DNA from: Deltaproteobacteria bacterium RBG_16_54_11
GTDB taxonomy: Bacteria > Desulfobacterota > B13-G15 > RBG-16-54-18
Assembly (NCBI GenBank): GCA_001797905.1
Contig: MGQS01000109.1
Location: 821-41,391, forward strand
Direction: 5' to 3'
Length of the DNA: 40,571 nucleotides
The translations under genes were made by a program, and so were the position numbers. The notes beneath the pieces are model-generated. The model was not told where the DNA came from, searched no databases, and saw nothing but the letters and a program-made list of their open reading frames with translations. Below are positions 3,248 through 34,322 of the stretch, one piece after another (position 1 is the stretch's first letter; every line of letters begins with the position of its first letter).

Positions 3248-3270
3248 GCTAAGAAAATTAGCAGAAAAGG

Positions 3271-4010: not shown

Positions 4011-5750
4011 ATGTTGGAATATGAGAAATACTGGCACTTTATAGACCTCCCGTTCAAGGTCTTTCCTTCCGGGGATACCTACTTCCCCTCGGCGACCCAT
4101 GAGGAAGCCAGGGCGAGGATATTTCAGGCCATACGGACCCGCAAGAGGATCATCCTGATTACGGGCAAGCCGGGCTCAGGGAAGACCACCCTCTGGAAGA
4201 AGATCAAGGGGGATCTGGAGCAACATCATATCCCCTTTGCCATGGGTGTTGCGGAAAACCCCATGGGCAATTTCTCCGAGATCATGAGGGAGATGGGTGA
4301 GAGCATGGGTCTTCCCACCTCCCGTGATAACGGAGAGCTCTTAGGGGCCCTCAGGGACAAGCTCAGGGATAACGTCAAGAGAGGGACAACAAATATATGG
4401 CTGATAGATGAATGCCAGGTGATAAAGGATACGGATATCTGGGAAAGACTCAGGTTGTTGACCAACTGGTCATTGAACGGCTCTCCGGCTCTGACCCTGT
4501 TCCTCCTGGGCCAGCCGGAGGTCATCCCCATCCTCCGTGAAAAGGAGGGCTTCTCCCAGAGGATAGGGGCCTACTATATCCTCGGCGCTCTCAGCTTGCA
4601 GGAGACTGGGGCGTATATCGAGTACCATCTCAAAAAGGTGAACTCTGCAAATTTAAGCATCTTCACCGAAGATTCGGTGCATAGGATATATCAATTGTCA
4701 GGGGGACTCCCGCGCAACATAAACCATATTTGCGACGCTGCCCTTCTGCTCGGTGCGATTCAAGGGAAGGAGTTTGTCGACGCGAGGATGGTGGAATCGG
4801 TTGCTGCGGAACGGGCGTCCATCAGTGGGGAGCAAGAGGTCGTATGGACGCCGATGCGGGAGGGCCTTATGGCAACCGATGCAACGGTAGATGAGCATAA
4901 TAATATATATGAGGAATTAGTTAAGACATTTGACAAATTCTATTACATTAAAAAGGGGGAGAGCCCCATAGATCTGGTGGAGAAGGAGCTCGAGCCGATT
5001 GTCCCTCAATTTATAAGGGCCGTGAAGACGGACAGGGGGCTCATGAAAAAGGCCTTATACGGTGAAGAGCCAGATGTCTATCTCTTGCAACACTGCGTGA
5101 ATGTGGCGGTTCAGGGTGCGAAGATAGGCATGGGAATGGGTTACAGCGAGGATGAATTGAAGCGATTGTCCCTGGCAGCCCTGATTCACGATATAGGGAT
5201 GGGGGATGTTCCTGAGCAGATATGGACCAAGAAGGGATCGCTCTCACCCTCCGAGATCGATGAGATGCGCAGGCACCCTGTGTATGGCTACGAGCGCCTC
5301 AAACCATTGGATGAGATCGCTACCATAGTGCTGCAGGAACATGAAAGGATGGACAGTTCAGGCTATCCTAATGGCGCGTTATGCGAAGATATTCATGAGT
5401 TCTCCTACATCATCGGGATCGCAGATATATATGACAGTCTCCTCCATACCCGTCCCTATCGGGATAAACGGTACTCCTCCTTTGAGGCGATCAAGGAGAT
5501 CGTGACGATGGAGAAGCGGCGATTCCCTGCCAGCGTGCTCAAGTCTTTGGTCGCTTACTTCCTTTTTCCGGTGGGGAGCCAGGTGGAGTTGAACAGCCGG
5601 GAGAAGGCCGAGGTGGTTGAGGAAAACAGGGCCAATCCGATGCGCCCGATAGTGAAGATCACCCACGATCAAGACAATCGGGAATATAAGAAATCCAGGA
5701 TTATAGACCTGGACAGGGATCAAAAATTCTTCATCGCGAGGAGTTTCTGA
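4011..5750 (+). CDS. Fusion protein: ExeA/GspA-like (PEP-CTERM-locus type) AAA+ ATPase N-terminal domain plus HD-GYP domain (putative c-di-GMP phosphodiesterase)
   Basis: 579 aa. The N-terminal half has the P-loop ITGKPGSGKTT and WLIDECQ (DEAQ-like Walker B). The C-terminal half has LIHDIGM, RRHPVYGYERL, QEHERMDSSGYPNG and IADIYDSLLHTRPYR. Confidence 0.85.
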   Translation: MLEYEKYWHFIDLPFKVFPSGDTYFPSATHEEARARIFQAIRTRKRIILITGKPGSGKTTLWKKIKGDLEQHHIPFAMGVAENPMGNFSEIMREMGESMGLPTSRDNGELLGALRDKLRDNVKRGTTNIWLIDECQVIKDTDIWERLRLLTNWSLNGSPALTLFLLGQPEVIPILREKEGFSQRIGAYYILGALSLQETGAYIEYHLKKVNSANLSIFTEDSVHRIYQLSGGLPRNINHICDAALLLGAIQGKEFVDARMVESVAAERASISGEQEVVWTPMREGLMATDATVDEHNNIYEELVKTFDKFYYIKKGESPIDLVEKELEPIVPQFIRAVKTDRGLMKKALYGEEPDVYLLQHCVNVAVQGAKIGMGMGYSEDELKRLSLAALIHDIGMGDVPEQIWTKKGSLSPSEIDEMRRHPVYGYERLKPLDEIATIVLQEHERMDSSGYPNGALCEDIHEFSYIIGIADIYDSLLHTRPYRDKRYSSFEAIKEIVTMEKRRFPASVLKSLVAYFLFPVGSQVELNSREKAEVVEENRANPMRPIVKITHDQDNREYKKSRIIDLDRDQKFFIARSF

Positions 5751-6559
5751 TGACAAGGATAAAAATCGGAGGGATTATATTTTTGTTGTCTTTTCTTTTC
5801 CTCGTTCCTCTCGTCCTTGCTGAAGAACTCTCTCCTAAGGCGGAAGAGCCGGCAGTTAAGGCGGAAGAGCCGGCAGTTAAGGTGGAAGAGCCGGCAGTTA
5901 AGGTGGAAGAGCCGGCTGTTAAGGCGGAAGAACCTGCTGCCAAGATAGCTGCTATAAAAGATGCCCGCGCCGTCTACACCGTGGGGGTGGGGGATGTGCT
6001 GACAATACGGCTCAGGGAGGGTGTCAAGCTGAGTGAGTACGATGCAACGGTCATGTCTACCGGCACGATCGTCATCTCCTTCATAGAGGTGGAGGCAGCA
6101 GGCCATACTATTCCCGAGATCAGGGAACAGGCCCAGAGGGAACTCGGCAAATACATTCGTGATTTCAGCGTGGACCTCATTCCAAGAGAATGGCGAGAAA
6201 AGAAGATCTTTGTCCTGGGCGAGGTAGAAAAGCCGGGGGTGTACAATTTCGCCGCAGGGATGACTGCCATGCAGGTACTCGCCTTGGCAGGGGGATATAA
6301 GGACTCCGCCCTGTTGAAGGATATGAGGATTATCAGAGGAAATCTCGATAATCCCGAGCTCATCCGGGTCAATCTGAAAGCGACGGCCAAGGGTAGAGAT
6401 GCGAAGGATGTTCTGCTTGCCCAGAATGACGTCATCTTCGTGCCCCGGAGCGCCATCGGCGACTGGAACGCCTTTATCAAGCTCTATATCCGTCCGACCG
6501 TTGAGGTTCTTTCCCTCCCTCTCAGTGGAGCGGCCACCATCCAGAGTTTCGGAAAGTGA
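5750..6559 (+). CDS. Polysaccharide export protein (Wza/Poly_export + SLBB type) with a repeat-containing N-terminal linker
   Basis: 269 aa. It has a signal peptide (MTRIKIGGIIFLLSFLFLVPLVLA), YTVGVGDVLTIRL (Poly_export-like) and ILGEVEKPGVYNF...AMQVLALAGG (SLBB-like). Its start overlaps the upstream stop (TGATG). Confidence 0.85.
   Translation: MTRIKIGGIIFLLSFLFLVPLVLAEELSPKAEEPAVKAEEPAVKVEEPAVKVEEPAVKAEEPAAKIAAIKDARAVYTVGVGDVLTIRLREGVKLSEYDATVMSTGTIVISFIEVEAAGHTIPEIREQAQRELGKYIRDFSVDLIPREWREKKIFVLGEVEKPGVYNFAAGMTAMQVLALAGGYKDSALLKDMRIIRGNLDNPELIRVNLKATAKGRDAKDVLLAQNDVIFVPRSAIGDWNAFIKLYIRPTVEVLSLPLSGAATIQSFGK
5840..5944 (+). repeat. In-frame 21-bp tandem repeat, 5 copies (GCGGAAGAGCCGGCAGTTAAG-like)
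   Basis: Read directly from the sequence. It encodes AEEPAVK-AEEPAVK-VEEPAVK-VEEPAVK-AEEPAAK. A degenerate copy (EELSPK) lies at 5822-5839. Confidence 0.95.
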
Positions 6560-6566
6560 GTGTGAG

Positions 6567-8723
6567 ATGGAGAAAAAGAGCTACGATCTTTCCATAAGGG
6601 ATTATCTCTTTATCTTAAAAAAGAGGAAGAAGATCATCGTCTTGGTCCTCCTCCTTACCCTTACGGCCGTCATCTTCGGGACCTATCTTGCCACCCCTTC
6701 CCCACAATATAAGGCTACTGCTTCGGTCAGGGTAGAGCGTATTACCGACGTAACCGGATTTTTGATGGAGGTCATCTCGTATCCCCTCGGGGACGTGCTG
6801 CAAGGGCAGATGGAACTGATCAGGAGCTATGATGTCATGGAGAAGGTGGCGAAGGCCCTGGGTTTGATCCCGCGCGATGCGACTGTCGAGGAGGTAAGTA
6901 CCAACGATACGTACAGGAATACCATCTCTTCCATTAGGGATGCCATCACTGTTGAGCGACAAGGAAGCTCCAATATTATTTCCATCAGTGCAATTGCCAA
7001 CAGTGCTGAAAAGGCCCAACGATTGGCCAATTTGGTGGCGGAGCAGTACCGGGAGGTCAACATCGTCTCTAGAAACAAGAGGGTCTTCGACGCGAAGGAC
7101 TTTGTGGAAAAGCGGCTCAATCAGGTAGAGGAGAAGTTAAAAAGCGCTGAAGATGAGCTTCGCTCCTTTCGTGAGGGGGCAACCCTTGCCCATCTCACCC
7201 AGAAGGAGATGGAGACGGCCAAAAAGCTCGTTGATATAGAGGGGAGGATCGAGGATCTCAGGACGGAAAAAGCGGAGGTGGACTACGCCGTACAGCTGGT
7301 TAAACAAGGGCGCATGATCAGTCCTCGATCGCAATTGACCGTCGAGAGGGATCAGGGCGCCATTGTCACTACCTTAAAGATCTATTCCGACCTCCTGTTG
7401 AAGAGGGAAAATTTACTCCTTACCTATTTCCCTGCCCATCCTGCGGTCAAGGCAGTTGACGGTGAGCTGGAGAACACCAAGATTGAACTGTTGAAGCATC
7501 TTACTGCCCAGAGTACCGGCTATCAAAAGAGGGTTGATCTGCTCGAAGGGGAATTAAGGACCCTTCAGGCAAAGGCGAGACAACTGCCGGCCGAGGCCCT
7601 CTCTTTTGAGCGGCTGAAAAGGGAGGTGGAGATCAATGGCACCCTTTACACCCAACTCAAGACCAAGTATCAGGAGCTCTTGATCAAGGAGGCAGAGAGG
7701 ATTGAGGAGGTATCCATCGTCAATCCTGCGGTCAAACCTTATTCCCCGGTGAATAGGCCCTCCTATCTGCAAAACGGCCTCTTGGGAATCCTCATCGGGC
7801 TCCTCTTGGGGGTGGTTTTTTCCGTTTTCTATGAATCTTATGACACCTCCATCACGACAGTGGAGGAGATCGAGTCCATCTTGGAGGTGCCGGTTCTAGG
7901 GGTGATCCCCTACCTTGGTGAGAAAGAACTGAAGGAAGAGATGTCCAAAAGGGGGCAGGACAAGATCCCTCAAGATCCCGAACTCTTTAAGGCCCTCTTC
8001 ACCTATTTTACCCCTGATCATTTTTTGACGGAGGCCTTCAGGATCCTGCGCACGGCCCTCTTGAAGGTGGAATCGGCGCGGGTCCTTGCAGTAAGCAGCC
8101 CCGCTACCCGCGAAGGGAAGACCTTCGTCATGATGAACCTAGCGATCTCCATTGCGCAGACGGGCAAGAAGGTATTGGTCATTGATGCCGATTTCCAGAT
8201 GAGCATGGTGAACAGACTCTTTGGCATCCCGAGAGAACCGGGGCTTTCCGACGTCATCTTGAGGAATGTTCCCTTCAGCCAGGCGGCCAGGAGTATCGTT
8301 GATCTGATATTGGGGGAGAGGGGTTTCGATTTTGCTCTCTCGGGGACAGGCCTGGAGAATGTACACATCCTCCCGACCGGCGGGAAGTCGCCGAAGGCCA
8401 GGGAGATGTTATCCGTATACATAAAAGACGTGTTAACGGAGGTGAAGGAGATAAAGGAATTCGATTACATCATCATCGACACACCTCCCATTCTCCCCGT
8501 TATGGATGCTGTGGAGCTATCCACCCATGTGGACGGCGTCCTGCTTGTCTATGAGGCGGGCAAGGTCCCCAAGATGGCCCTCCGCAGGGCACGGACCCAT
8601 ATCCTGAACGCAGGGGGGAGGATTATAGGCGCCGTGCTCAACAAGATGAAGGCGGAGGTGAGCCCTGATTACTATAAATATACGTACACGCACTACTACG
8701 GTGGAAAGGAGAAAAGGGCCTAA
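6567..8723 (+). CDS. Wzc/GumC-like polysaccharide co-polymerase fused to a BY-type tyrosine autokinase
   Basis: I place the start at ATG 6567 (MEKKSYDLSIRDYLFILKKRKK + TM, Wzz-like). A long coiled-coil region and a second TM follow. The kinase part has Walker A SSPATREGKTF, A' VLVIDADF, Walker B DYIIIDTPP and the C-terminal Tyr cluster SPDYYKYTYTHYYGG. Confidence 0.9.
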   Translation: MEKKSYDLSIRDYLFILKKRKKIIVLVLLLTLTAVIFGTYLATPSPQYKATASVRVERITDVTGFLMEVISYPLGDVLQGQMELIRSYDVMEKVAKALGLIPRDATVEEVSTNDTYRNTISSIRDAITVERQGSSNIISISAIANSAEKAQRLANLVAEQYREVNIVSRNKRVFDAKDFVEKRLNQVEEKLKSAEDELRSFREGATLAHLTQKEMETAKKLVDIEGRIEDLRTEKAEVDYAVQLVKQGRMISPRSQLTVERDQGAIVTTLKIYSDLLLKRENLLLTYFPAHPAVKAVDGELENTKIELLKHLTAQSTGYQKRVDLLEGELRTLQAKARQLPAEALSFERLKREVEINGTLYTQLKTKYQELLIKEAERIEEVSIVNPAVKPYSPVNRPSYLQNGLLGILIGLLLGVVFSVFYESYDTSITTVEEIESILEVPVLGVIPYLGEKELKEEMSKRGQDKIPQDPELFKALFTYFTPDHFLTEAFRILRTALLKVESARVLAVSSPATREGKTFVMMNLAISIAQTGKKVLVIDADFQMSMVNRLFGIPREPGLSDVILRNVPFSQAARSIVDLILGERGFDFALSGTGLENVHILPTGGKSPKAREMLSVYIKDVLTEVKEIKEFDYIIIDTPPILPVMDAVELSTHVDGVLLVYEAGKVPKMALRRARTHILNAGGRIIGAVLNKMKAEVSPDYYKYTYTHYYGGKEKRA

Positions 8724-10082
8724 TTGAATGTCAGCGTTGATCTATCCTTCCAATCTAGGTTAATCCTAACTTGCCTCTCCCTTGGTGCCGCCCTCCTTAT
8801 CATCTTACTGCCGCCTTCTTTTACCTTGATCGCCTTTTTGGCACTGGTGATTGCCGTCATATGTTTTATTTACCCGCAGGTCGCGCTCTACATTCTTATC
8901 GTTTCCATGCTCTTTTCACCGGAGGTGATGGTCGGGCAGACAGCTGCCAGAGAAGTCACCTTCAGGATGGATGATCTTTTGTTGATAATCATCGCTATTA
9001 CGTGGCTCGTCAGGGCCGCCATATACAAGGAATTGGCGGTCTTTCGCCTCACCCCCCTTCATACCCCTATTGCCCTCTACATGTCGGCTTCTCTCCTTGC
9101 TACCTTGATAGGCATGGTGATGGGAAAAGTGGGCGTTGCGACGGGTCTCTTCTTTAACCTGAAGATCTTTGAGTATTTTATCGTCTTCTTTATGGTGGTC
9201 AATTATGTGAGGGAGGAGAAGGAGATAAAGACCTTCGTTATCCTGATCCTCCTTGTGGCCCTCATGGTAAACCTCTATGCCCTCTATCAAGTCCCCTCGG
9301 GTGCAAGGGTGACTGCCCCCTTTGAGGGGGAGTTCGGCGAGCCCAATACGCTGGGCGGATACCTCATTCTCATCATCTCCGTGGCCCTTGCACTTTTCCT
9401 GCTCAGAGGCTTCGGCCCGCGGACCAATCTCCTGATTCCATTACTCGTTCTTTCGGGCGCCATCTTGATGTTTACCCAATCGAGGGGTTCCTGGATTGGT
9501 TTGATATTAATGAGCGCCCCCTTTATGCTCCTCTCGCCGAAGAGGGTCTTCTTTATCAGTGGGGCCATCTTTCTCATCCTTGCCCTTCCCTATATCGCAC
9601 CTAAGTCCACAAAAGAGAGATTTGCCGGCACCTTTCGTCCCGAACCTTTTTATGAACGCACCGAGAGGTTTATGGGGATGGGACTCGATCCCTCTGCATC
9701 GGAGAGGGTGGCCAGCTACAAGCAAGGATTCGAGAAGTGGAAGAAGCACCCCATTCTAGGGTACGGTGTTACCGGTGCGGGTTTCATTGACGGCCAATTT
9801 CTTCGAGTATTGCTGGAGACGGGAATTATAGGACTTGCCTTGTTTCTCTTTCTCTTGTGGCGCATGGCCCTCTTTTTGTGGAATACCTATTGGTCTGTGG
9901 ATGATCCATTTTTTAAGGCTCTCTACCTTGGGATGTTGGGCGCTTTGGCTGGTCTTATAGGACATTCAATCAGCGCGAGCTCCTTTATCGTAGTGAGGAT
10001 CATGGAGCCGTTTTGGTTCTTGATGGGACTTGCGGCTGCCTATCCCCTGATAAGGGGTGAGCTTACCTCTGCCGAAGAGTAA
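8724..10082 (+). CDS. O-antigen ligase/polymerase-like (Wzy_C domain) membrane protein
   Basis: 452 aa and polytopic (about 10+ hydrophobic segments). It contains MFTQSRGSWIGLIL, typical of the O-antigen ligase domain. It has a TTG start directly after the upstream TAA. Confidence 0.8.
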   Translation: MNVSVDLSFQSRLILTCLSLGAALLIILLPPSFTLIAFLALVIAVICFIYPQVALYILIVSMLFSPEVMVGQTAAREVTFRMDDLLLIIIAITWLVRAAIYKELAVFRLTPLHTPIALYMSASLLATLIGMVMGKVGVATGLFFNLKIFEYFIVFFMVVNYVREEKEIKTFVILILLVALMVNLYALYQVPSGARVTAPFEGEFGEPNTLGGYLILIISVALALFLLRGFGPRTNLLIPLLVLSGAILMFTQSRGSWIGLILMSAPFMLLSPKRVFFISGAIFLILALPYIAPKSTKERFAGTFRPEPFYERTERFMGMGLDPSASERVASYKQGFEKWKKHPILGYGVTGAGFIDGQFLRVLLETGIIGLALFLFLLWRMALFLWNTYWSVDDPFFKALYLGMLGALAGLIGHSISASSFIVVRIMEPFWFLMGLAAAYPLIRGELTSAEE

Positions 10083-10185
10083 ACAAAGATCTTCTAGCCA
10101 AGGAGCCTTGCATCTTCTCCTTCGTATCGCTCCTTGTGAGAATGAACCCAAAAACACGAGAAAAAGTAATAAAGGACAGCATTTC

Positions 10186-11655
10186 GTGAAACCGGAAGCA
10201 TCGCTCTCTCAGCGGGTAACAAGAGCTGGAGCCTGGGTTTTTACTCTTAGAATAATTGAAAAAGGCTTTGGCTTTATCAGGCTTATTATCTTAGCCAGGC
10301 TGTTAGCCCCGAACGATTTTGGTCTCATGGGCATTGCCCTTTTAACGTTGTCTATCTTAGAGACCTTTTCGGAGACGGGATTCCAGACTGCTTTGATTCA
10401 AAAAAAGAAGGACATCAGCGCCTATCTGGATACTGCATGGACGGTATCTATACTGAGAGGTATTGCTTTATGTATCATTATCTTCTTCTCCGCACCTTAT
10501 GTAGGTCTCTTTTTTAAAAGTACCGAAGCGTCCTCTATTATTCAGGTACTTGGACTTTCAATTCTCCTGCGGGGATTTACAAACACCGGCATTATTTATT
10601 TTCAAAAGGAACTCGAATTTAACAAACAATTCATCTATGGATTAATCACGACATCAGCTGATTTCATAGTGGCGATTTTGGCGGCTGTGATACTAAAAAA
10701 TATCTGGGCCCTCGTATTTGGTTATCTTGCAGCGAACTTAGCAGGGCTTGTGGCAAGCTATCTTATTCAACCGTATAGGCCGCGGCTGAGCCTGGATTTA
10801 AAAAGGATCAAAGAGTTATCCGGTTTTGGGAAATGGGTTTTTGGGTATAATATTTTGTATTTTTTTTTAATGCAGGGTGATGACTTTTTTGTCGGCAAAG
10901 TACTCGGGATAGCAGCACTTGGTTTTTATCAGATGGCTTATAAAATCTCAAATATACCGGCAACTGAAATAACTCATGTGATTTCCAAGGTGATATTCCC
11001 AGCCTATTCTAAGATGCAAGACGATCTGCCTCGATTACGGGAATCCTATGTAAGGGTCTTACAATTCATAGCATTTTTCTCTTTCCCGATAGCCGGGTTA
11101 ATTTTTATATTAGCGCCGGAGTTCACTATGATTTTTTTGGGGAATAAATGGATGCCGATGGTTCCAGCCATGCAGGTATTGGTTCTTTGGGGATTGGTGA
11201 GATCCTTGGGCACAACAACCGGAACACTGTTGGTATCCGTAGGTAAACCTGCAATCGTAACCAAATTGCACTTTGCCACATTAATTTTATTGGGCAGTCT
11301 CATTTATCCTCTTTCAGTCACATGGGGAATACTCGGAACATCCTTAGCGGTGCTTTTCGCCATGGTGGTTCCAAATTTAGTGGCCTTTATTGTTATTATT
11401 AAAGTCATAAGGCTAAAAATATACAATCTCACGAAGATGATATTTTTACCTTTGTTAAATACTGGCTTTTTAATCTTACTCATATCCCTCGCAAAGCCAT
11501 ATTGGGTCAATTTCGGGATATTGGGTTTCTCGCTTTTCGTTATCATTGGCTTAACATCTTATTGTTGTATAGCATATTTATTTGATAAATTTTATGACTA
11601 CCGCCTCGTGGATAATATAAAGATGAGTATCTATTCGTTAAAAAATTTACAATGA
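10186..11655 (+). CDS. Wzx-type polysaccharide flippase (MOP superfamily)
   Basis: Polytopic membrane protein, with RLIILARLLAPNDFGLMGIALL typical of polysaccharide biosynthesis/flippase proteins. I favour the GTG start at 10186, with AAGGA 9-10 nt upstream. The tracked ORF starts at 10057, inside the previous gene. Confidence 0.8.
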   Translation: MKPEASLSQRVTRAGAWVFTLRIIEKGFGFIRLIILARLLAPNDFGLMGIALLTLSILETFSETGFQTALIQKKKDISAYLDTAWTVSILRGIALCIIIFFSAPYVGLFFKSTEASSIIQVLGLSILLRGFTNTGIIYFQKELEFNKQFIYGLITTSADFIVAILAAVILKNIWALVFGYLAANLAGLVASYLIQPYRPRLSLDLKRIKELSGFGKWVFGYNILYFFLMQGDDFFVGKVLGIAALGFYQMAYKISNIPATEITHVISKVIFPAYSKMQDDLPRLRESYVRVLQFIAFFSFPIAGLIFILAPEFTMIFLGNKWMPMVPAMQVLVLWGLVRSLGTTTGTLLVSVGKPAIVTKLHFATLILLGSLIYPLSVTWGILGTSLAVLFAMVVPNLVAFIVIIKVIRLKIYNLTKMIFLPLLNTGFLILLISLAKPYWVNFGILGFSLFVIIGLTSYCCIAYLFDKFYDYRLVDNIKMSIYSLKNLQ

Positions 11656-11698
11656 AACTATAAAAGATTTTATTAAAAAAAATCGGGATACGAAGACA

Positions 11699-12418
11699 AT
11701 GAAAGCATACGGCAGAGGTGAGCAAGACTTTAAGGATTATTTTGATTCTATCTATGGGAGATCTGATATCCTCAGCCCCGAAGAATACGAAAATACTTCT
11801 CATCTTTATCATTTTTATTACGGCAATTTTTTACCGAAAGATATAAATGCGCCGATACTTGATATCGGCTGCGGCGCTGGCCATTTTTTATTTTATCTAA
11901 AAAAAATTGGATATAAAAATTTTACGGGCATTGATCTATCGCCGGATAATATAGAGCATTGCAAAGTCAATATCGCACCTAACGTGCAGCTGGCCGATGC
12001 CTTCGCGTATCTGGTTAAAAAAAAGAGTATGTATTGTGTCATATCGGCGAACGATGTGATCGAACATATACCAAAAGAAAGAGTTATAAAATTATTGAGG
12101 CTTATGTATCGTGCCCTGAGACCTGGCGGCATCTTATTATTGAGAATACCCAATATGAGCAATCCTTTTTCCATCCAAATGAGATACAGAGATTTTACTC
12201 ATGAATGCGGCTTCACCGAGAAAAGTATTTATCAGGTGCTGCATCTTGCCGGCTTTCGAGATATTCAGATTAATGCTTCCTGGACCGATAAAAAAGCAAT
12301 TAAATCGTACATAAGAAAAATAGTATTAAGAAAATTGTTTTGGTTTCTGGGAGGATGTAATGCCCCGGAAATATTAAGCTGCCTTCTGATTGTTATAGCC
12401 AAAAAATCGGATGCCTGA
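11699..12418 (+). CDS. Class I SAM-dependent methyltransferase
   Basis: 239 aa with ILDIGCGAGHF (motif I) and LRPGGILLLRIPN (post-I/II). Confidence 0.85.
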   Translation: MKAYGRGEQDFKDYFDSIYGRSDILSPEEYENTSHLYHFYYGNFLPKDINAPILDIGCGAGHFLFYLKKIGYKNFTGIDLSPDNIEHCKVNIAPNVQLADAFAYLVKKKSMYCVISANDVIEHIPKERVIKLLRLMYRALRPGGILLLRIPNMSNPFSIQMRYRDFTHECGFTEKSIYQVLHLAGFRDIQINASWTDKKAIKSYIRKIVLRKLFWFLGGCNAPEILSCLLIVIAKKSDA

Positions 12419-12421
12419 GAT

Positions 12422-14203
12422 ATGGTGAAGAAGATTAATGTGGCTGCATGTCTTTTATTTTATGAGAGATTGGAGCAAACTATTGAATGTATCAATAGTT
12501 TATTACCGTCAGGGGTAGATATCTATGTACTGAATAATGGTTCTTCTTTCTCGTCACGAAAGTCGTTAACGGAATTTTGCGTAAAACACAAACAGATCAA
12601 AGTCTTTGATTCGGATGTTAACTTGGGCCCTAGCGGCGGTAGAAATTATTTGATAAACCATACTACCGTAGAATGGCTTTTATTTATGGATAATGATGTC
12701 GTCATGAAAACTGCTGATTGGTTGGAAAGATTCACTAAACATGCAGAACTAAGCAGCGAGATAGAAGTATTTATCCCCAAAATGTTTATTACTCGCAGCA
12801 AGGAATACCATAGCCATTACTCTTATAGGATAGAAGGAAATACCGCATTTCCCGATAGAATAATTATGGATAACACGACAAATACTTTTCCTGGGGGGGC
12901 ATCATTCATCAACCGCGATCTCTTTATAAGATTGGGTCTTTATGATGATAAACTATTCGGTTTTGAAGAATTTGACCTTAGCCTTAGAGGTATAATTTCT
13001 GGGGAACCTGTAAAGGCAAAGCTGATTTATGATATTGAGCTGGCCCACGATCATCGACCAGCCAAGGGAAAAAAAGATAGAGATGCTGCAATAGTAAGAT
13101 ATGATTTAAATACTATAGATAAATCGTACAAATGGATTGCTGAAAAACATGGGTTAATATTATCAGACTCTGCTAGAATTGGAACTGTCTATAACCTTGA
13201 ATATATGCTTAACAGATATAATATTTTTCAAATTTATTTCTGGAAACAACTCATCCCAAAACCCGTAAAGAGATTTTTAAAAGACCTTTATATTTCAAAA
13301 ATACAGAGACGATCTAAGCCGAAATCGGCGACTCTTTTTTTAACTGAAAGGTGTAATTTTAGCTGTCAAGGATGTCGCCGACAGCATATTGGTCTCAATA
13401 AATCGAAAGATATGACTTTATCAACTGTTCAAAGGCTATTGTCTTTATATCCTGCAATTGAACGTTTTTGTATAGCTGGTCAAGGAGAACCAACGCTTTG
13501 CCCAAACTTTCTTGAAATCACTGACTATTTACTTAAAATTGGGAAAAGTGTGAGCATAGTGACAAATGGTACAAATCCTTTTAAGATTTTTGCTCTGAGT
13601 TATCAGCCTGATAGCATATCGATTAGTCTCTATGGATCTAATAGACAGCAATATATATCCTACACAGGCTCTGATTTTTTTGAAGACGTAGTTGATTCTT
13701 TTAAGAAATTAAGCAGTAGATTCAAGAATGTGGGAATATCATTTATAGTGAACAAGGCTAATTATAGAGAATTAGATGGCATTTTGTCTTTATGTGACGA
13801 GATTAAGCCTGCTTTTGTTGATTTGCACAATTATCTTGCTTATGATCCTGATAATAAAGATGAAACGTCTAAAATAATAACTACTCATGATACTGAAATA
13901 GTTGCTTATATTAATTCTGTTTGCAGTTGCCGCGGTTATCGAATAAATAAACCGATTTTTATAGACCTTGAGAAACAGAAACTTCTCTGTAGATCATATA
14001 GTTACCTCATCAATCTTGATGGATCGGGGAATATCGGCGGCTGCCAAAGGCAAGTAACTCCAAATTCAGAGTGTGGCAATATATTTAATGAGCTTGATCC
14101 TTATAATTCTGTAAATATGACCAAGTTTCGGAAAAAAATGTTTAAAAGCCATTTAATTCATAAAGAGTGTTTTTTTTGCTTTGGAAATTGGCGAAAGGAA
14201 TAA
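12422..14203 (+). CDS. Fusion protein: GT2 glycosyltransferase (N-terminal) plus radical SAM enzyme with a twitch/SPASM-like Cys-rich C-terminus
   Basis: 593 aa. Residues ~1-290 read VAACLLFYERLEQTIECINSLL...YVLNNGS...LLFMDNDV (GT-A fold, DxD). Residues ~300-593 contain LTERCNFSCQGCRR (CX3CX2C), IAGQGEPTL, then CRSYSYLINLDGSGNIGGC (CX12GX4C) and KECFFCF. Confidence 0.8.
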   Translation: MVKKINVAACLLFYERLEQTIECINSLLPSGVDIYVLNNGSSFSSRKSLTEFCVKHKQIKVFDSDVNLGPSGGRNYLINHTTVEWLLFMDNDVVMKTADWLERFTKHAELSSEIEVFIPKMFITRSKEYHSHYSYRIEGNTAFPDRIIMDNTTNTFPGGASFINRDLFIRLGLYDDKLFGFEEFDLSLRGIISGEPVKAKLIYDIELAHDHRPAKGKKDRDAAIVRYDLNTIDKSYKWIAEKHGLILSDSARIGTVYNLEYMLNRYNIFQIYFWKQLIPKPVKRFLKDLYISKIQRRSKPKSATLFLTERCNFSCQGCRRQHIGLNKSKDMTLSTVQRLLSLYPAIERFCIAGQGEPTLCPNFLEITDYLLKIGKSVSIVTNGTNPFKIFALSYQPDSISISLYGSNRQQYISYTGSDFFEDVVDSFKKLSSRFKNVGISFIVNKANYRELDGILSLCDEIKPAFVDLHNYLAYDPDNKDETSKIITTHDTEIVAYINSVCSCRGYRINKPIFIDLEKQKLLCRSYSYLINLDGSGNIGGCQRQVTPNSECGNIFNELDPYNSVNMTKFRKKMFKSHLIHKECFFCFGNWRKE

Positions 14204-14259
14204 AAAAGGCGATTATATAGTTAAAAAATCCAAGCAAATATTTAAGAAAGTTACCAAGT

Positions 14260-14997
14260 ATGAAGAAATTAATCAAACATGCGCTCAAAAAAATACACCT
14301 ATATGATTTTGTGCAATTTTACCTTATTCATATCAGACTTCTTAAAAGAATTGCATGTGGTACTGATAATCGAATTATCAAAAGATACTTAAGTGTAAAC
14401 GGAGTCAAAAAACTTCAGATTGGCTCAGGTGAAAATTTCCTTGAAGGTTGGATTAATTCGGATATTGATCCTTGCTCGGATAATAAGATTTATCTTGATG
14501 CCTCAAAATCATTTCCTTTTGAGGATTCAACTTTTGACTATGTATTTAGTGAACACATGATAGAACACATAACATATCAAGAAGGTTTTAATATGCTATC
14601 AGAATGTTACCGCATCTTGAGCCCCGGCGGGAAAATCCGTGTGGCAACTCCTGACTTGCAATTTTTATTTGAACTGTATAAGTTAAATAAATCAGAATTG
14701 CAAAATGAATATATTAAATGGTCGGTTAAAAAAAGTAATATTCCAGGTGTAACGGCTTTTGCTGATACATTTGTGATTAACAAGTTTTTTAGTGGGTGGG
14801 AGCATAAATTCATTTATGATGAGAAAGCGCTGCGATATACACTTCTAAAAATTGGCTTTACCGGCATTAAAAAATGTCATTTGAATGAAAGCGACGATGA
14901 ACTGCTGCGGGGACTTGAAAATGAAAATCGCATGCCCGCTGGGTTTCTTGAGTTGGAAACCATAGTTTTGGAAGGGACAAAACAAATCAGTGGATGA
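14260..14997 (+). CDS. Class I SAM-dependent methyltransferase (Methyltransf_11-like)
   Basis: 245 aa with KLQIGSGENFLEGWINSDI, FDYVFSEHMIEH and LSPGGKIRVATPD. Confidence 0.8.
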   Translation: MKKLIKHALKKIHLYDFVQFYLIHIRLLKRIACGTDNRIIKRYLSVNGVKKLQIGSGENFLEGWINSDIDPCSDNKIYLDASKSFPFEDSTFDYVFSEHMIEHITYQEGFNMLSECYRILSPGGKIRVATPDLQFLFELYKLNKSELQNEYIKWSVKKSNIPGVTAFADTFVINKFFSGWEHKFIYDEKALRYTLLKIGFTGIKKCHLNESDDELLRGLENENRMPAGFLELETIVLEGTKQISG

Positions 14998-15127
14998 GGA
15001 CTTGAGAAAACTGAACGTTCCTCCAGGCTGTGCATTAGGTGTTTTTTAATGCCACACTATTAAAAAATAAAAATGATGCGGCCTTGATCATATTATTCAT
15101 TATAGACTATATATTTCAAACTCAATA

Positions 15128-16177
15128 ATGTTATCAAAAAGAAAATTTAAGGTTCTTTTTTCATCAAATAAAAATCCTAATTTTGAAACATTTACCGACT
15201 ATATTGAAAAAGCACTTAATGAAGTAGGGTGTGAGACCTTATTTTTTGAAAATAGACATTTTCTTCTTCCAGGAAGAATAAGGGATAAAGTCAGATTATT
15301 AAACAATGGTGATTTATATATATTAAATAGGCGGCTATTGAATAAGGCAATCGAGTTCAAGCCACTTCTTTTTCTTGAAGATGGTGGATGGAATATTTTG
15401 CCGGCCACGCTAAAAGCAATGAATAAGGTTGGAATAGTAACGGCTCTTTGGACTAATGATCCCCCAAGATTTCAAGATCGTCATTTAAATAGTTTAAAAA
15501 AAAATGCATCTTATTATGACCATGTTTTTGTGACTGGATCGGAGGGGGTCGATTTTTTTAAAAATACTGTTAACTGTCTTCATTTGTTGCCGTTTGCATG
15601 TGATCCTGATTATCACAAACCTATGAAGATAACTAACTCCGTAAAAGATAGGTATAGTTATGATGTATGTTTTGTTGGCTCAGGATGGGAGGAACTATAT
15701 CCCTATAGAATAAAGTTACTTGAGGGATTAACGGATTTTAAACTAGGGGTATGGGGACCTGGTTGGGAAACATTATCTTCGATGTCTCCATTAAAAAAAT
15801 TTATCAATGGTGCTCACCTAAAGACAGCAGAATGGGTGAAACTATTCAGTACCTCAAAAATAGTATTCCATTCTCATTTCCAAGATCCTTTGAACTTAAT
15901 GCCTAACTATCAAGTAAATCCAAGAGTTTTTGAGGCGCTAGCATGTGGCTCATTTCTTCTTGTTGATGATCAGAAGGATATTTCGTGCTTTTTTAAAAAT
16001 GGCGAACACCTTGTTATCTATAAAGATATGAATGATTTGAGAGCTAGGGTAGCATATTATCTTAACAATGATGATGAAAGAAAAAGAATAGCAGATTGTG
16101 GAAGAAAAGAAGTTCTAAAGAAGCACACTTACAAACACAGGGTAAAGGATATCATCAACACCGTTACAAAGGGTTAA
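15128..16177 (+). CDS. CgeB-family / Glyco_trans_1_2-type glycosyltransferase
   Basis: 349 aa. The C-terminal sequence NPRVFEALACGSFLLVDD...YYLNNDDERKRIADCGRKEVLKKHTYKHRV is typical of the CgeB-like family. Confidence 0.7.
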   Translation: MLSKRKFKVLFSSNKNPNFETFTDYIEKALNEVGCETLFFENRHFLLPGRIRDKVRLLNNGDLYILNRRLLNKAIEFKPLLFLEDGGWNILPATLKAMNKVGIVTALWTNDPPRFQDRHLNSLKKNASYYDHVFVTGSEGVDFFKNTVNCLHLLPFACDPDYHKPMKITNSVKDRYSYDVCFVGSGWEELYPYRIKLLEGLTDFKLGVWGPGWETLSSMSPLKKFINGAHLKTAEWVKLFSTSKIVFHSHFQDPLNLMPNYQVNPRVFEALACGSFLLVDDQKDISCFFKNGEHLVIYKDMNDLRARVAYYLNNDDERKRIADCGRKEVLKKHTYKHRVKDIINTVTKG

Positions 16178-16178
16178 C

Positions 16179-16814
16179 TTGAAACTACGCGATATTATAA
16201 TCAGCATGATCGGAGAGAAGTCGTATATTCAAATTAAACATATTTTAAAAAGACTCCTTTGTCTTGCGCGGGGGGTCAAGCAAAGCGGCATCAATGTCTA
16301 TATATCACCCCGCGCCGTCATCAAGAGAGGTCGAAAAATCAATTTGGGAGCAAATGTTGTCCTGGAGCGGGGTGCGACGCTCTGGGTTGATACAAATCAA
16401 TCGTACATTTCTATTGGTGATGATTCTTATCTTTCCTCTCAATGTATTTTGAATACCTTTGATGGTTGGATCTCACTAGGGAGCAACTGCACAGTCAACA
16501 GTTATGCAATTCTGTATGGTCATGGGGGCCTTGAGATAGGCAACGATGTGAGGATAGCGCCCCAGGTGATGATAATGCCTATGAACCATATATCTAAAGA
16601 TCCTCATGTACCGATACGGAAGCAGGGTATAAGGGCTCAAGGTATAAAGATAGAGGATGATGTCTGGCTGGGTGCCGGGGCCATCGTTTTGGATGGAGTG
16701 ACCATCGGAAAGGGTTCTGTGATCGGCGCCGGCGCCGTCGTTACAAAGAATATTCCTCCCTACTCTGTGGCAGTCGGTGTTCCTGCCAGGGTGATAAAGA
16801 AAAGAGGTAAATAA
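16179..16814 (+). CDS. Hexapeptide-repeat (LbH) O-acetyltransferase
   Basis: The sequence reads DDVWLGAGAIVLDGVTIGKGSVIGAGAVVTKNIPPYSVAVGVPARVIKKR. The start is TTG 16179 or ATG 16206. Confidence 0.85.
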   Translation: MKLRDIIISMIGEKSYIQIKHILKRLLCLARGVKQSGINVYISPRAVIKRGRKINLGANVVLERGATLWVDTNQSYISIGDDSYLSSQCILNTFDGWISLGSNCTVNSYAILYGHGGLEIGNDVRIAPQVMIMPMNHISKDPHVPIRKQGIRAQGIKIEDDVWLGAGAIVLDGVTIGKGSVIGAGAVVTKNIPPYSVAVGVPARVIKKRGK

Positions 16815-16934: not shown

Positions 16935-18059
16935 ATGTTAGATAAGAGAAAATACAATATCCTCTACACGACCTCTTTTGCTCATATGATGGGGGGAGGG
17001 CAGCGGAGTCTCTATTATCTGATAAAACATCTGAACAAAGAGATCTATCACCCGATTGTTCTGTGTCCCGGTGCAGGCGAGCTTGCAGATAAGATGAGGG
17101 AGGCTGGCTCGGAAGTGGTTTTTCTGGATGTAGGCAGGATCAGATACTTAAACCCATTGGTAGTCAAAAAGTTCGTCTCTCTCGTAAAAGAAAGACAGGT
17201 AGCCCTTATCCACACCGATTCCACTACCGAGACCTTCTATGCCGGCATCGCCGCGAGGATGATGCGGATACCCCTTGTATGGCATATCCGGGTAAGCGAG
17301 CGTGAATGGTTTCTTGATAGGGTTCTCTCACTACTTTCAACGAGGTTGATCCTCGTTGCAAAAGCTATCGGCCGAAGATTTGCATGGCTGAGGGATCATC
17401 AAAAGATGGTCGTCATTTACAATGGTATTGATCTTGAGGAATTTGATCATTTCCCAATTACCTCTTCAATCAGAGAAGAATTTAACATCAGTAAAGAGAC
17501 AGTGTTCCTTGGATGCATAGGACGGATTGAGGAGCGCAAGGGTCAGGAGTATCTTATTTCTGCCATGAGGAATATAAAGAGTGCCAAACTTATCTTGGTG
17601 GGGCGAGGAGATGATGGATACACAGGGAGAATGCAAAGTCTCTGCAATGAGCTTGGCATCTCCGATCGTGTTTTTTTTGCTGGCGCGAGAGATGATATTC
17701 CATCAGTCCTCAAGGAGATTGACATACTTGTCTTCCCGTCGATTGGCGGTGAAGGCTTCCCAAGGGTCCTCCTTGAGGCCATGGCAGCTCGAAGGCCTGT
17801 TATTGCAACGGACGATGCCGGCAATCCCGAGGCTGTTGAGGATGCCCTCACGGGCTACATTGTCCCGACTGCGAATAGTGCAGCTCTAACGGAGAAGATA
17901 AAGGAAATGGTTGCGGACAAGAAAAAGAGGAGGGCAATGGGACAGGCCGGCAGAAAAAGGCTTGAGGAGCTCTTTACGATTCAACAACATGTTAAGAGAA
18001 TTGATGCTCTCTATCAGGGGATCCTTTCGAAAGAGCATAAGCCGGGTAAATTAAGCTAA
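16935..18059 (+). CDS. GT4 (GT-B fold) glycosyltransferase
   Basis: 374 aa with GRIEERKGQEYLI and VFPSIGGEGFPRVLLEAMAARRPVIATDDAGNPEAVED (EX7E region). Confidence 0.9.
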   Translation: MLDKRKYNILYTTSFAHMMGGGQRSLYYLIKHLNKEIYHPIVLCPGAGELADKMREAGSEVVFLDVGRIRYLNPLVVKKFVSLVKERQVALIHTDSTTETFYAGIAARMMRIPLVWHIRVSEREWFLDRVLSLLSTRLILVAKAIGRRFAWLRDHQKMVVIYNGIDLEEFDHFPITSSIREEFNISKETVFLGCIGRIEERKGQEYLISAMRNIKSAKLILVGRGDDGYTGRMQSLCNELGISDRVFFAGARDDIPSVLKEIDILVFPSIGGEGFPRVLLEAMAARRPVIATDDAGNPEAVEDALTGYIVPTANSAALTEKIKEMVADKKKRRAMGQAGRKRLEELFTIQQHVKRIDALYQGILSKEHKPGKLS

Positions 18060-19153: not shown

Positions 19154-19996
19154 ATGATTAGATTACTGGAGAGCCATATTCGTGACCATTGGGATGATTT
19201 TAATCTTCCTTTCGTGCTCCCCACAAGATTTTTATTTCTCTTTGTAAAGGGTTTCAGGAAGACGATATTTTTCTTATTTAAGGATAATAATTCTCAACCA
19301 TTTGCGGTTTTAAAGATAAGCGATGATCCTGTAGTTTTTGAGAGGTTAGAGAGCGAATATGAGACCTTGTCTTACTTATTCGCCAAAAAAACGATGACGA
19401 GAAACATACCTGCACCACTCGCATTCTTTGAGATGAGAGGTCACAAATGTGTTTTTGAATCCGCCTTAGGGGGTACCCCTTTAGTTTATTCTATTAAAGG
19501 AATAAGAACCAGGAGGGGATTGATAAGAATGCGGGAGATCTTTACCTGTGTCGTTGATAGTTTAATAGCTTTACACAGCCCCAGCTCGCCACATGAGAAG
19601 GATAAGAAAAAACAGGTTGTTGTTGAGCATGGTGATTTCAACCCATCAAATCTTTACATTTCGAGAAGTGGCATAAAGATTTTTGATTGGGAGTACTCTA
19701 CACTTCATGGGGTGCCGATGAGGGACCTTTTAGACTTTTCGCTCAAGTATGTCCTTTTTGCGCGATATCTGGCGAAAGAGGTCAGACGGGAGCAGCCTGT
19801 TTTAAATGACTTTGAAGAGGCGTTTCTCGCAGGAACTACTCATAGTCAAATAATATGGGAGAATCTTAACAGGTATGGCGATAGAATGGACTTATCAAGA
19901 TCATCTAAGCGAGATATCTTTTCTATCTTCGTCAGAAAGTATCTTGATGAACATGATGCGCGGGCTTGTCGTGAAATGTTAGATATTTTACTGTAG
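19154..19996 (+). CDS. APH/choline-kinase-fold phosphotransferase
   Basis: 280 aa. It carries the Brenner motif VVEHGDFNPSNLYI followed by IFDWEYS. Confidence 0.7.
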   Translation: MIRLLESHIRDHWDDFNLPFVLPTRFLFLFVKGFRKTIFFLFKDNNSQPFAVLKISDDPVVFERLESEYETLSYLFAKKTMTRNIPAPLAFFEMRGHKCVFESALGGTPLVYSIKGIRTRRGLIRMREIFTCVVDSLIALHSPSSPHEKDKKKQVVVEHGDFNPSNLYISRSGIKIFDWEYSTLHGVPMRDLLDFSLKYVLFARYLAKEVRREQPVLNDFEEAFLAGTTHSQIIWENLNRYGDRMDLSRSSKRDIFSIFVRKYLDEHDARACREMLDILL

Positions 19997-28673: not shown

Positions 28674-28677
28674 CCAT

Positions 28678-30453: not shown

Positions 30454-30589
30454 CTCAAATTTCATATCCCTCTTAATTCACATAAAATTCTCATCCATCC
30501 CTCATACCCTTCTCACATTGGCTGCGTATTGTATACGGCATATGAGTTCATTGGGAAAGGAGGGATGCAGTGGAAATGCCCCTAGAATC

Positions 30590-30618: not shown

Positions 30619-30650
30619 TTATTGTTAAACTTAACTCAAGGAGGAAAAAA

Positions 30651-31685: not shown

Positions 31686-31692
31686 GGCACCC

Positions 31693-32583: not shown

Positions 32584-32585
32584 AT

Positions 32586-33518: not shown

Positions 33519-33519
33519 C

Positions 33520-34311: not shown

Positions 34312-34322
34312 GAGGGAGAGCG

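Follow-up and report, generated by a model that had tools for sequence, protein, structure and literature searches.

A gene in the assembly of Deltaproteobacteria bacterium RBG_16_54_11 (GCA_001797905.1), located at positions 12422–14203 on the forward strand of a 40,571-nucleotide stretch of contig MGQS01000109.1 (the whole stretch analyzed, hereafter the window), encodes a protein in which a family 2 glycosyltransferase (GT2) is joined to a radical S-adenosylmethionine (SAM) enzyme carrying a C-terminal auxiliary-cluster site of the twitch type. With a confidence slightly better than even, we read this protein as truly bifunctional: within a surface-polysaccharide pathway of the Wzx/Wzy type, it would both transfer a sugar and modify, by radical chemistry, a sugar of the glycan under assembly. 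That the two activities are coupled is well supported; the exact substrate and chemistry we can only infer, and our confidence in any specific chemistry is much lower than in the bifunctional role as such.

Both halves of the protein score above the Pfam cutoffs. PF00535 (Glycos_transf_2) matches residues 14–170 (E=5.4e-16, 59.4 bits against a cutoff of 23.3), PF10111 also exceeds its threshold on this half (E=6.5e-8, 32.8 against 27.3 bits), and PF04055 (Radical_SAM) covers residues 307–457 (E=3.5e-14, 53.8 bits against a cutoff of 29.5). An earlier note on this DNA had described a single-polypeptide fusion of these two domains and had named a failure of the C-terminal half to match radical SAM profiles as a reason to abandon that description. 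It holds on both counts, and the motifs that the note had listed (YVLNNGS, MDNDV, CNFSCQGC, GQGEPTL, CX12GX4C and CFFC) all lie where it had placed them. The gene and its parts, all on the forward strand, are the following:

12422–14203, forward: GT2–radical SAM/twitch fusion protein, one uninterrupted and complete open reading frame (ORF) of 593 amino acids according to the ORF list
12422–13156, forward: predicted GT-A fold GT2 domain, residues 1–245 (PF00535 and PF10111, AlphaFold2, Foldseek)
12689–12697, forward: DxD motif D90-N-D92, a signature of metal and nucleoside diphosphate (NDP)-sugar binding, invariant among fused homologs
13157–13321, forward: interdomain linker, residues 246–300, basic and aromatic (charge; low predicted local distance difference test score, pLDDT, at residues 265–300)
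13322–13966, forward: predicted radical SAM core, a partial TIM barrel, residues 301–515 (PF04055, AlphaFold2, Foldseek)
13352–13375, forward: CX3CX2C motif C311/C315/C318, predicted ligands of the SAM-binding [4Fe-4S] cluster (sequence)
13478–13498, forward: GQGEPTL, residues 353–359, the 'GGE' SAM-binding motif (sequence and conservation)
13967–14200, forward: putative twitch-type auxiliary-cluster domain, residues 516–593 (four invariant cysteines, predicted topology)
13988–13990, 14042–14044, 14168–14170 and 14177–14179, forward: codons of the four cysteines C523, C541, C583 and C586 (hereafter Cys4)

The AlphaFold2 model of the fusion, built on 36 homologs, comprises two well-defined domains (mean pLDDT 89.4; predicted template modeling score, pTM, 0.54) separated by a low-confidence linker at residues 265–300. 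With a pTM of 0.54, the model gives no prediction of how the domains are oriented to each other, and neither a channel nor a shared active site can be claimed. The GT2 domain is modeled with a pLDDT above 90 over most of its length and is matched by Foldseek to the GT-A transferases AvpGT, WrtF, ppGalNAc-T and 6p61 (E ~1e-11); by sequence, no close solved relative of this half was found in the PDB, where the best match is GalT1 (5hea, E=0.0074). The IYVLNNGS stretch lies at residues 35–41, FMDNDV carries the DxD aspartates D90 and D92, and the residues of this half that are invariant among the 36 aligned homologs include D90, D92, E182, H209 and H211. The GT2 half thus looks like a competent inverting, DxD- and metal-dependent GT-A transferase, whose activity is predicted from these features. 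Residues 265–300 of the linker have a net charge of +9, its sequence is conserved in the consensus of the fused homologs, and a basic N-terminal extension equivalent to it is retained in standalone homologs of the radical SAM half (consensus of alignment A2). A search for transmembrane helices in the fusion protein found none (maximum KD19 = 0.87).

Modeled alone, the radical SAM half reaches a pLDDT of 80.8 and is matched by Foldseek to radical SAM structures with a probability of 1.00; in the AlphaFold2 model of the fusion, beta and alpha elements alternate over residues 302–470. The CNFSCQGC motif corresponds to C311-N-F-S-C315-Q-G-C318, and G355, E356, P357, T358 and L359 of the GGE motif are at least 90% conserved among fused homologs. 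The window protein keeps every catalytic motif intact, and its radical SAM half looks competent, with a [4Fe-4S] cluster predicted at C311/C315/C318 and SAM binding predicted through the GGE motif.

The C-terminal domain carries the pattern C523-X12-G536-X4-C541 followed by C583-F-F-C586, and the chain stops seven residues past C586. C523, G536, C541, C583 and C586 are, like D90 and D92, invariant in 36/36 aligned fused homologs (34–83% identity), a constancy well beyond what chance would give; the Cys4 set is kept in 63 of the 64 full-length fused homologs, the lone exception being a truncated sequence, and in 65/65 scanned members of the wider radical SAM clade. A SPASM domain has the form CX9–15GX4C-gap-CX2CX5CX3C-gap-C and binds two clusters, and a twitch domain is its truncated form with one auxiliary cluster (PMC6231123, SkfB structure paper). 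In BtrN, one of the cysteine ligands of the auxiliary cluster precedes a beta-hairpin, one follows it and two come after helix alpha2' (PMC6231123). The model of the window protein has the corresponding order: predicted strands 529–532 and 537–539 (hairpin 529–539) separate C523 from C541, and a predicted helix at residues 564–574 precedes C583/C586. With the first half of the SPASM motif, a hairpin between the first two cysteines and a later CxxC, the site has the marks of a twitch domain. A full SPASM motif was rejected; there are four cysteines only, the CX5CX3C...C part is absent, and PF13186 (SPASM) does not match the window protein even at E<=1. Distant clade members that align on the same four cysteines do match PF13186 (positions 1–66 of 67, E 3e-7 to 8e-3), hence the Cys4 region of the window protein is homologous to SPASM, though divergent. 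By motif, invariance and predicted topology, the C-terminal cysteines are a twitch-type site, or half SPASM, with putative cluster binding, as the earlier note had read them.

That note had also offered BtrN, the butirosin 2-deoxy-scyllo-inosamine dehydrogenase and prototype twitch radical SAM enzyme, as a precedent. The likeness in twitch topology and Cys4 layout stands, but a relationship does not: the BtrN profile match has E=0.012 and is confined to profile positions 43–100 around the CX3CX2C motif, and BtrN is not among the top 50 Foldseek matches of the radical SAM half. We therefore rejected homology to BtrN beyond topology. The best Foldseek match of this half is SkfB (template modeling score, TM, 0.72; E=6.5e-13), followed by SuiB, BlsE (E=5.8e-12, TM 0.63), DesII (E=5.8e-12), MoaA, viperin-like enzymes, PqqE and anSME, which places it in the SPASM/twitch clan that includes the sugar-acting DesII and BlsE. 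No close solved structure exists for this half in the PDB: the best sequence match is SkfB (3.6e-4), and a profile search gave TYW1 at 1.5e-8 and SkfB at 9e-7. A scan against NCBIfam returned sub-threshold matches only, the best being TIGR04317 (tungsten-cofactor maturase, 67.3 bits against a cutoff of 380), and NF033640, the 'twitch domain-containing radical SAM protein' model (N_Twi_rSAM), scored 30.9 bits against a cutoff of 170. All curated radical SAM equivalogs considered (tungsten-cofactor maturase, HxsC, MoaA, TYW1, viperin, MftC, NirJ and AhbC/D) were rejected as far below their cutoffs. Judged by its profile matches, the fusion protein is a member of the GT2 and radical SAM superfamilies that matches no curated equivalog.

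The fusion is present well beyond this assembly. The identical 593-amino acid protein with the same neighbors occurs in at least three independent samples (JGI 3300037424, Logan SRR12684511 and JGI 3300030613), and database searches recovered about 70 full-length fused homologs with 34–85% identity from JGI, ENA, NCBI and Logan assemblies; 64 fused homolog clusters were counted as full-length (560–660 amino acids, end-to-end alignment). The GC content is equal across the junction (0.353 in the GT2 half, 0.340 in the radical SAM half), with no compositional break. We found no support for an assembly or sequencing artefact joining two separate genes, even if the linker has low predicted-structure confidence, and the independent assemblies, the diverged fused clusters, the equal GC of the halves and the conserved linker led us to reject the mis-join that the earlier note had feared and to give it practically no weight. 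The nearest fused homolog in a named metagenome-assembled genome (MAG) is 76% identical and stems from Candidatus Brocadiaceae, the next (60%) from Deltaproteobacteria RIFOXYD12. Among the GTDB species genomes the carriers, all MAGs, are Desulfobacterota, Brocadiaceae (76% identity), Nitrospirota, Falkowbacteria, Acidobacteriota, Ignavibacteria/Melioribacter, Chlorobiaceae, Deferribacteraceae and Bacillota. All of them belong to anaerobe-type lineages, which is consistent with an oxygen-labile enzyme. The JGI automatic annotation labels homologs 'GT2 family glycosyltransferase / MoaA/NifB/PqqE/SkfB family radical SAM enzyme'; since it names both domains, the pair is already visible in databases. 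The open-access and bioRxiv texts searched held nothing relevant on glycosyltransferase (GT)/radical SAM fusions or on radical SAM enzymes in polysaccharide or undecaprenyl-linked pathways, and we found no curated family, solved structure or paper on the fusion. No family of defined function claims it, and the earlier view that it belongs to no characterized class agrees with this.

A census of architectures, which the earlier note had proposed, returned the 64 full-length fused clusters together with reversed, split, triple and giant forms. The domain order is reversed in a protein of 621 amino acids (P0058, radical SAM followed by GT2), and the same radical SAM–GT2 arrangement heads proteins of 1,400–2,487 amino acids, in which it is followed by a GT4 domain and as many as three additional GT2 domains. 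These giant proteins are found in Ignavibacteria/Melioribacter, Deferribacteraceae and other MAGs, with the layout rSAM-GT2-...-GT4-GT2x3, and resemble single-polypeptide glycan assembly lines. Their ORFs are:

L017, 7977–15440
L019, 4654–12114
L022, 7977–15398
L018, 7983–14558
L020, 8046–12737
L025, 7977–12470
L026, 7989–12191

A triple fusion GT2–radical SAM–GT4 of 941 amino acids (P0057) has a PF13524 domain as its GT4 part, three loci (L005, L006 and L016) encode GT2 and radical SAM proteins as adjacent separate genes in either order, and the GT2 half is also fused directly to GT4/PF13524 without a radical SAM domain (P0086–P0106, e.g. C6E5U6 of Geobacter sp. M21). In two fusions a PF08484-like module of about 100 amino acids stands between the GT2 and radical SAM domains (P0062, residues 293–382; P0065, residues 279–370), and in P0089 it follows a GT2 domain (residues 279–379) with no radical SAM domain present. 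These matches (E 6.4e-8 to 2e-4) resemble the C-terminal domain of sugar C-methyltransferases.

With a profile of the radical SAM half, 120 representative clusters (50% identity) were collected at E<=1e-30 and 2,811 at E<=1e-10. Most of the best 150 matches have 530–620 amino acids and carry their radical SAM domain in the C-terminal half, and of 65 multidomain clade members scanned, 59 match Radical_SAM, 17 GT2 and 12 GT1/GT4. The remaining branch of 530–560 amino acids begins with a domain in which a QVDxDM motif is conserved and which matches GT2 weakly; this N-terminal domain appears to be divergent, DxD-containing and GT-A-like. Judging from these domain matches, the twitch radical SAM clade is habitually joined to GT2 or GT4 domains. 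The occurrence of opposite fusion orders and of split forms argues, by the Rosetta-stone principle, for functional coupling of the GT and the radical SAM enzyme, and this pattern of fusion, permutation and split genes clearly strengthens the hypothesis that sugar transfer and the radical modification of a sugar are coupled. Within the clade, inteins also appear to have been inserted: two multidomain relatives in alignment A3 contain PF14890 splicing domains, and single members of that alignment also match LAGLIDADG or HNH domains.

The genomic context points in the same direction. The genes around the fusion that bear on its role are:

5750–6559, forward: Wza (Pfam Poly_export/SLBB)
6399–8723, forward: Wzc (Pfam Wzz/GNVR/AAA_31)
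8724–10082, forward: Wzy (Pfam Wzy_C)
10057–11655, forward: Wzx (Pfam Polysacc_synt_3)
11699–12418, forward: upstream class-I SAM methyltransferase (PF13489, E=2e-20), whose stop lies 3 nt before the fusion start codon
14260–14997, forward: downstream class-I SAM methyltransferase (PF08241, E=5.7e-9)
15128–16177, forward: GT-B type glycosyltransferase, Glyco_trans_1_2 (PF13524, E=2.1e-35)
16179–16814, forward: hexapeptide O-acetyltransferase (Pfam Hexapep; WbbJ/WcaF-like by NCBIfam, below cutoff)
16935–18059, forward: GT4 glycosyltransferase (Pfam Glycos_transf_1)
898–1950, reverse; 22899–24077, forward; 35123–36265, forward: DegT-family genes

By their domain content the Wza to Wzx genes at 5750–11655 are the export and polymerization machinery of a Wzx/Wzy-dependent polysaccharide. 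The forward strand carries, in order, an AAA/HD protein, Wza, Wzc, Wzy, Wzx, a methyltransferase, the fusion, a second methyltransferase, the PF13524 GT, the hexapeptide acetyltransferase, GT4, a methyltransferase, an APH-like gene, two GT9 genes, a methyltransferase, DegT and CinA. NCBIfam gave only generic, sub-threshold matches for these neighbors. The fusion gene lies, as the earlier note had described, in the lowest-GC part of the window (0.335–0.37 against about 0.52 in the flanks) between the two SAM methyltransferases. The low-GC island as a whole spans 10000–16500 (0.33–0.42 against about 0.52), contains wzx, the methyltransferase, the fusion, the second methyltransferase and the PF13524 GT, and looks like a laterally exchanged, serotype-specific cassette.

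Comparison with other loci shows which of these neighbors recur. Locus L002, whose fusion protein is 60% identical, is syntenic with the window; it has the upstream methyltransferase and lacks the downstream one, and the PF13524 GT directly follows the fusion. Two Nitrospirota loci (L001 and L004) share an upstream DUF2304–GT2 gene pair and a secretin gene and have a GT4 gene directly upstream of the fusion, and L001 also carries ABC transporter genes. When all neighbors over 19 non-redundant loci were clustered into families, the broadest recurring ones were glycosyltransferases, with a GT4 family present in 13/19 loci and a second GT2 family, in most cases right next to the fusion, in 7/19; an ABC-transporter ATPase and a GT9 family recur in four loci each. 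No aminotransferase, dehydratase or single methyltransferase family, and no donor-synthesis or partner enzyme, is conserved near the fusion in these 19 loci. We rejected the flanking methyltransferases as obligate partners for lack of conserved co-occurrence. As far as the annotated neighbors tell, the context of the fusion and its relatives is always polysaccharide assembly of the Wzx/Wzy or ABC-transporter type.

Several further features of the locus may be recorded here. The mechanically called ORFs of Wza and Wzc overlap by 160 nt, and the true Wzc start is probably further downstream. Directly upstream of wza/wzc, and heading the operon in both the window (4011–5750, forward) and L002 (1702–3447), lies a gene whose 579-amino acid product joins an AAA_22 ATPase domain at its N-terminus to an HD/HD_5 phosphohydrolase domain at its C-terminus; this protein may be a nucleotide-signal-dependent regulator of the cluster. 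A conserved ORF of 280 amino acids (window 19154–19996, forward; L002 15853–16698) has a faint APH match (E=6e-4) and no NCBIfam match, and could encode a sugar or glycan kinase. In a 628-amino acid protein at 25920–27806 (forward) a GT4 N-terminal domain is matched only at residues ~441–597, the first ~440 residues having no Pfam match. Upstream of the main operon a divergent three-gene module on the reverse strand (898–3364) encodes a DegT protein (LegC/PseC-like, below cutoff), a PIG-L deacetylase and a WbqC-like protein; L002 has PIG-L and WbqC at the matching position and its sequence stops inside PIG-L. After the glycan region, 27987–34997 (forward) carries the genes of an OmpR-type response regulator and a PAS/HAMP histidine kinase, of a phosphate ABC transporter resembling pstSCAB, and phoU, and the third DegT gene (35123–36265; PseC-like, 276 bits, below cutoff) lies between phoU and lnt, away from the glycan genes.

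The motifs of the radical SAM core are not conserved in every fusion. The CX3CX2C triad is intact in 54 of the 64 full-length fused homologs and lost in ten (P0022, P0032, P0033, P0034, P0036, P0037, P0048, P0056, P0063 and P0069). It is replaced by C-S-C in P0022 and P0032, by S-H-Y in P0034 and by N-Y-Y in P0056; in P0069 the triad region is fully degenerate and the GGE motif is gone too. Since the triad-less homologs fall on several separate branches of a neighbor-joining tree, the triad appears to have been lost repeatedly. All ten keep the twitch Cys4 and the DxD motif of the GT2 half, the latter being present in 64/64 homologs overall, and the twitch-loop motifs GNIGGC, FGN and DP[YF]N are retained around Cys4. 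In standalone homologs of the radical SAM half all catalytic motifs are invariant. As read from these patterns of conservation, glycosyl transfer and the C-terminal Cys4 module are more constrained than SAM cleavage. The triad-less domains are apparent radical-SAM-dead pseudoenzymes that retain an 'auxiliary' cluster site, and they offer a natural experiment on what such clusters do once the radical chemistry is gone.

If the fusion is a bifunctional enzyme, the following sequence of events may be envisaged. The GT2 half would add one sugar from an NDP-sugar to a lipid-linked repeat unit on the cytoplasmic side of the membrane, where the basic, aromatic linker may, speculatively, hold the enzyme near its lipid-linked substrate. 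The radical SAM cluster would cleave SAM to a 5'-deoxyadenosyl radical, which would take a hydrogen atom from a C-H position of a sugar handled by the neighboring GT, either the acceptor or the residue just added. The Cys4-ligated twitch cluster would most likely serve as an electron relay that resolves the substrate radical, as proposed for BtrN and anSME. The glycan would end up with an oxidized (keto) sugar or, should the opposite face receive a hydrogen atom back, with an epimerized one. In BtrN the Cys4 auxiliary cluster is catalytically essential with a proposed role in electron transfer during oxidation of a hydroxyl to a ketone (PMC10337720), and the auxiliary clusters of both BtrN and anSME are thought to oxidize a radical intermediate (PMC6231123). 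A self-contained oxidation or epimerization at the level of the glycan is favored because no partner is conserved and because the module is embedded in assembly-line GTs.

Several observations weigh against a bifunctional glycan-tailoring enzyme. We infer the substrate and the type of reaction from context only, and the interdomain geometry has no confident prediction (pTM 0.54 at a pLDDT of 89). SkfB and SuiB, to which the radical SAM half is structurally closest, have peptides and not sugars as their substrates. Across the wider clade there is no conserved fifth cysteine that could act as the hydrogen-atom donor of an epimerase, C360 being conserved in the close family only. The loss of the triad in 10/64 homologs implies that radical chemistry is dispensable in some lineages and that the C-terminal domain has a role beyond catalysis, and the PF08484-like insert in P0062 and P0065 might mean that the substrate is a nucleotide sugar and not a glycan.

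The last of these points leads to an alternative that we consider unlikely. Here the donor, a nucleotide sugar, would first be altered by the radical SAM half, for instance through dehydration, deamination, decarboxylation, oxidation or rearrangement, much as DesII, BlsE, viperin and MoaA act on substrates linked to a nucleotide, and the GT2 half would pass the unusual and perhaps labile product straight on. The PF08484 domain contributes to NDP-sugar binding in C-methyltransferases, DesII, BlsE, MoaA and viperin-like enzymes are among the best Foldseek matches, and the sub-threshold NCBIfam similarities include prokaryotic viperin (3.9e-11) and MoaA (2.6e-12). A fusion would also suit the hand-over of a labile donor, and no donor-synthesis gene is conserved nearby. 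However, these similarities are at clan level (14–21% identity) and equally strong to peptide-modifying enzymes, the PF08484 matches are weak (6.6e-6 and 2e-4), and the module occurs in P0089 in a protein that has no radical SAM domain. MoaA moreover has a three-cysteine auxiliary cluster with an open iron site for the nucleotide (PMC6231123), whereas four invariant cysteines are present here. The position of the radical SAM domain inside giant, polymerase-like multi-GT proteins resembles that of tailoring domains acting on the glycan.

The triad-less homologs could be taken to mean that the radical SAM/twitch half does not modify sugars and serves chiefly as an Fe-S module for structure or regulation, for instance as a scaffold for acceptor binding or a redox or oxygen sensor gating transfer. 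Loss of the CX3CX2C motif in several independent events, and of the GGE motif as well in P0069, with retention of Cys4, the twitch-loop motifs and DxD would fit such a role, and among the 65 members of the wider clade nothing but Cys4 is invariant. We regard this as improbable: the 54 homologs that keep both CX3CX2C and GGE, the window protein among them, show evident purifying selection down to 34% identity, the standalone homologs preserve their catalytic motifs without exception, and loss in a minority would fit the decay of an optional tailoring step equally well.

The earlier note had connected the fusion to the three DegT aminotransferases of the locus and proposed that a BtrN-like dehydrogenase supplies their keto-sugar substrates in place of a missing 4,6-dehydratase or NAD-dependent oxidoreductase. 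Its count of three DegT genes is right, none of the window's ORFs was found to encode a short-chain dehydrogenase/reductase (SDR)-type or 4,6-dehydratase domain, and the predicted Cys4-ligated auxiliary site is as in BtrN. Yet the DegT genes are scattered over 35 kb and lie 9–22 kb from the fusion, one beside lnt/phoU and one in the opposite-strand WbqC/PIG-L module; the other fusion-bearing loci, the syntenic L002 aside, list no DegT; neither DegT nor any other aminotransferase or dehydratase family recurs in the 19 loci; the similarity to BtrN is negligible (E=0.012); and absence of a dehydratase from a 40-kb window does not imply its absence from the genome. This proposal was not borne out, and we hold it to be very unlikely.

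An equally poor prospect is a peptide or protein maturase similar to SkfB, SuiB, PqqE or anSME, whose product would be a glycosylated, radical-modified peptide or protein. The best Foldseek matches, SkfB and SuiB, would suit it, as would weak NCBIfam matches of the two halves to the mycofactocin proteins MftC (TIGR03962, 2.4e-10, 40 against 265 bits) and MftF (TIGR03965, 2.6e-5, 23 against 280 bits). Against it, the N-terminal half is a GT2 and the protein has no recognition element (RRE) of the systems for RiPPs (peptides made by the ribosome and modified after translation) and no peptide-binding domain; the gene tables of the loci examined contain no annotated precursor peptide, peptidase or RiPP exporter; all contexts are GT-rich Wzx/Wzy or ABC-type polysaccharide clusters; and the NCBIfam maturase scores are far below cutoff.

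We return to the fusion as a bifunctional enzyme of glycan assembly and compare it with systems already described. BtrN likewise combines a radical SAM core with a short C-terminal twitch domain; its single auxiliary cluster is fully ligated by four cysteines in the layout that Cys4 also has (PMC6231123; PMC10337720), and its substrate is carbohydrate-like, as predicted for the fusion. It differs in being a free-standing protein of ~250 amino acids that acts on a small aminocyclitol in antibiotic biosynthesis, with no GT fusion and no link to polysaccharide assembly. SkfB, SuiB, PqqE and anSME share the succession of an N-terminal recognition domain, a radical SAM core and an auxiliary-cluster domain; their N-terminus is an RRE or peptide-binding domain where the fusion has a GT2, their substrates are peptides and their identity is 15–19%. 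[quoted passage not shown] DesII and BlsE perform radical chemistry on nucleotide-linked sugar rings (deamination/oxidation and decarboxylation) and rank high in Foldseek, but they are only 14–18% identical, stand-alone enzymes of secondary-metabolite pathways that lack a GT fusion and do not belong to surface-polysaccharide loci. In mycofactocin biosynthesis the radical SAM/SPASM enzyme MftC and the GT2 MftF occur in one pathway; they are encoded by separate genes, act at different stages and on a peptide-derived cofactor, and the fusion locus has no mftA/B/D/E.

The closest conceptual precedent for radical tailoring at the level of the glycan is provided by HygY, SpeY, NeoN and AviX12, SPASM/twitch-type radical SAM epimerases or dehydrogenases that act on glycosidically linked sugars in aminoglycoside and orthosomycin pathways. 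These are separate proteins encoded in antibiotic clusters of aerobic actinomycetes, and we know of no GT fusion or strict GT adjacency among them. With regard to architecture, proteins of the WbdA/WbdD type, from ABC-transporter-dependent O-antigen synthesis, carry, on one polypeptide, several catalytic modules of the GT2, GT4, methyltransferase or kinase kind that act sequentially on a lipid-linked glycan, a multi-module layout shared by the 1,400–2,487-amino acid relatives. The tailoring modules that we know of in such proteins are polar-chemistry enzymes (methyltransferase, kinase), and no radical SAM module in this position is described in the open-access and bioRxiv literature searched.

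Taken together, the fusion combines known catalytic modules in an uncharacterized, recurrent and apparently functional coupling. Going one step further, we tentatively suggest, giving the claim as a whole a little less than an even chance, that GT-coupled twitch radical SAM enzymes form an unrecognized class that performs C-H oxidation, epimerization or another carbon-centered change during lipid-linked surface-glycan assembly, and that this module is portable, occurring with GT2 or GT4 partners, in either order, in megadalton-scale multi-GT lines and in at least nine phylum-level lineages of anaerobes. To our knowledge, sugar-acting radical SAM enzymes have been found almost only in antibiotic pathways and as free-standing proteins; here, a whole clade of 120 representative clusters is physically wired into the glycosyltransferases of surface polysaccharides. 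Should the radical SAM half catalyze a reaction on the glycan or the donor, it would constitute a new tailoring step in the biosynthesis of O-antigen, exopolysaccharide and capsule in anaerobes, and unusual sugars would be predicted in anammox, sulfate-reducing, Nitrospirota and Ignavibacteria lineages. The fused partner would then pin down the substrate of an orphan radical SAM enzyme, usually the hardest problem in the field, in a compact two-domain system. Were the proposed class to prove real, anaerobes would build part of their surface-glycan structures by oxygen-sensitive radical chemistry that is invisible to glycan prediction based on gene clusters.

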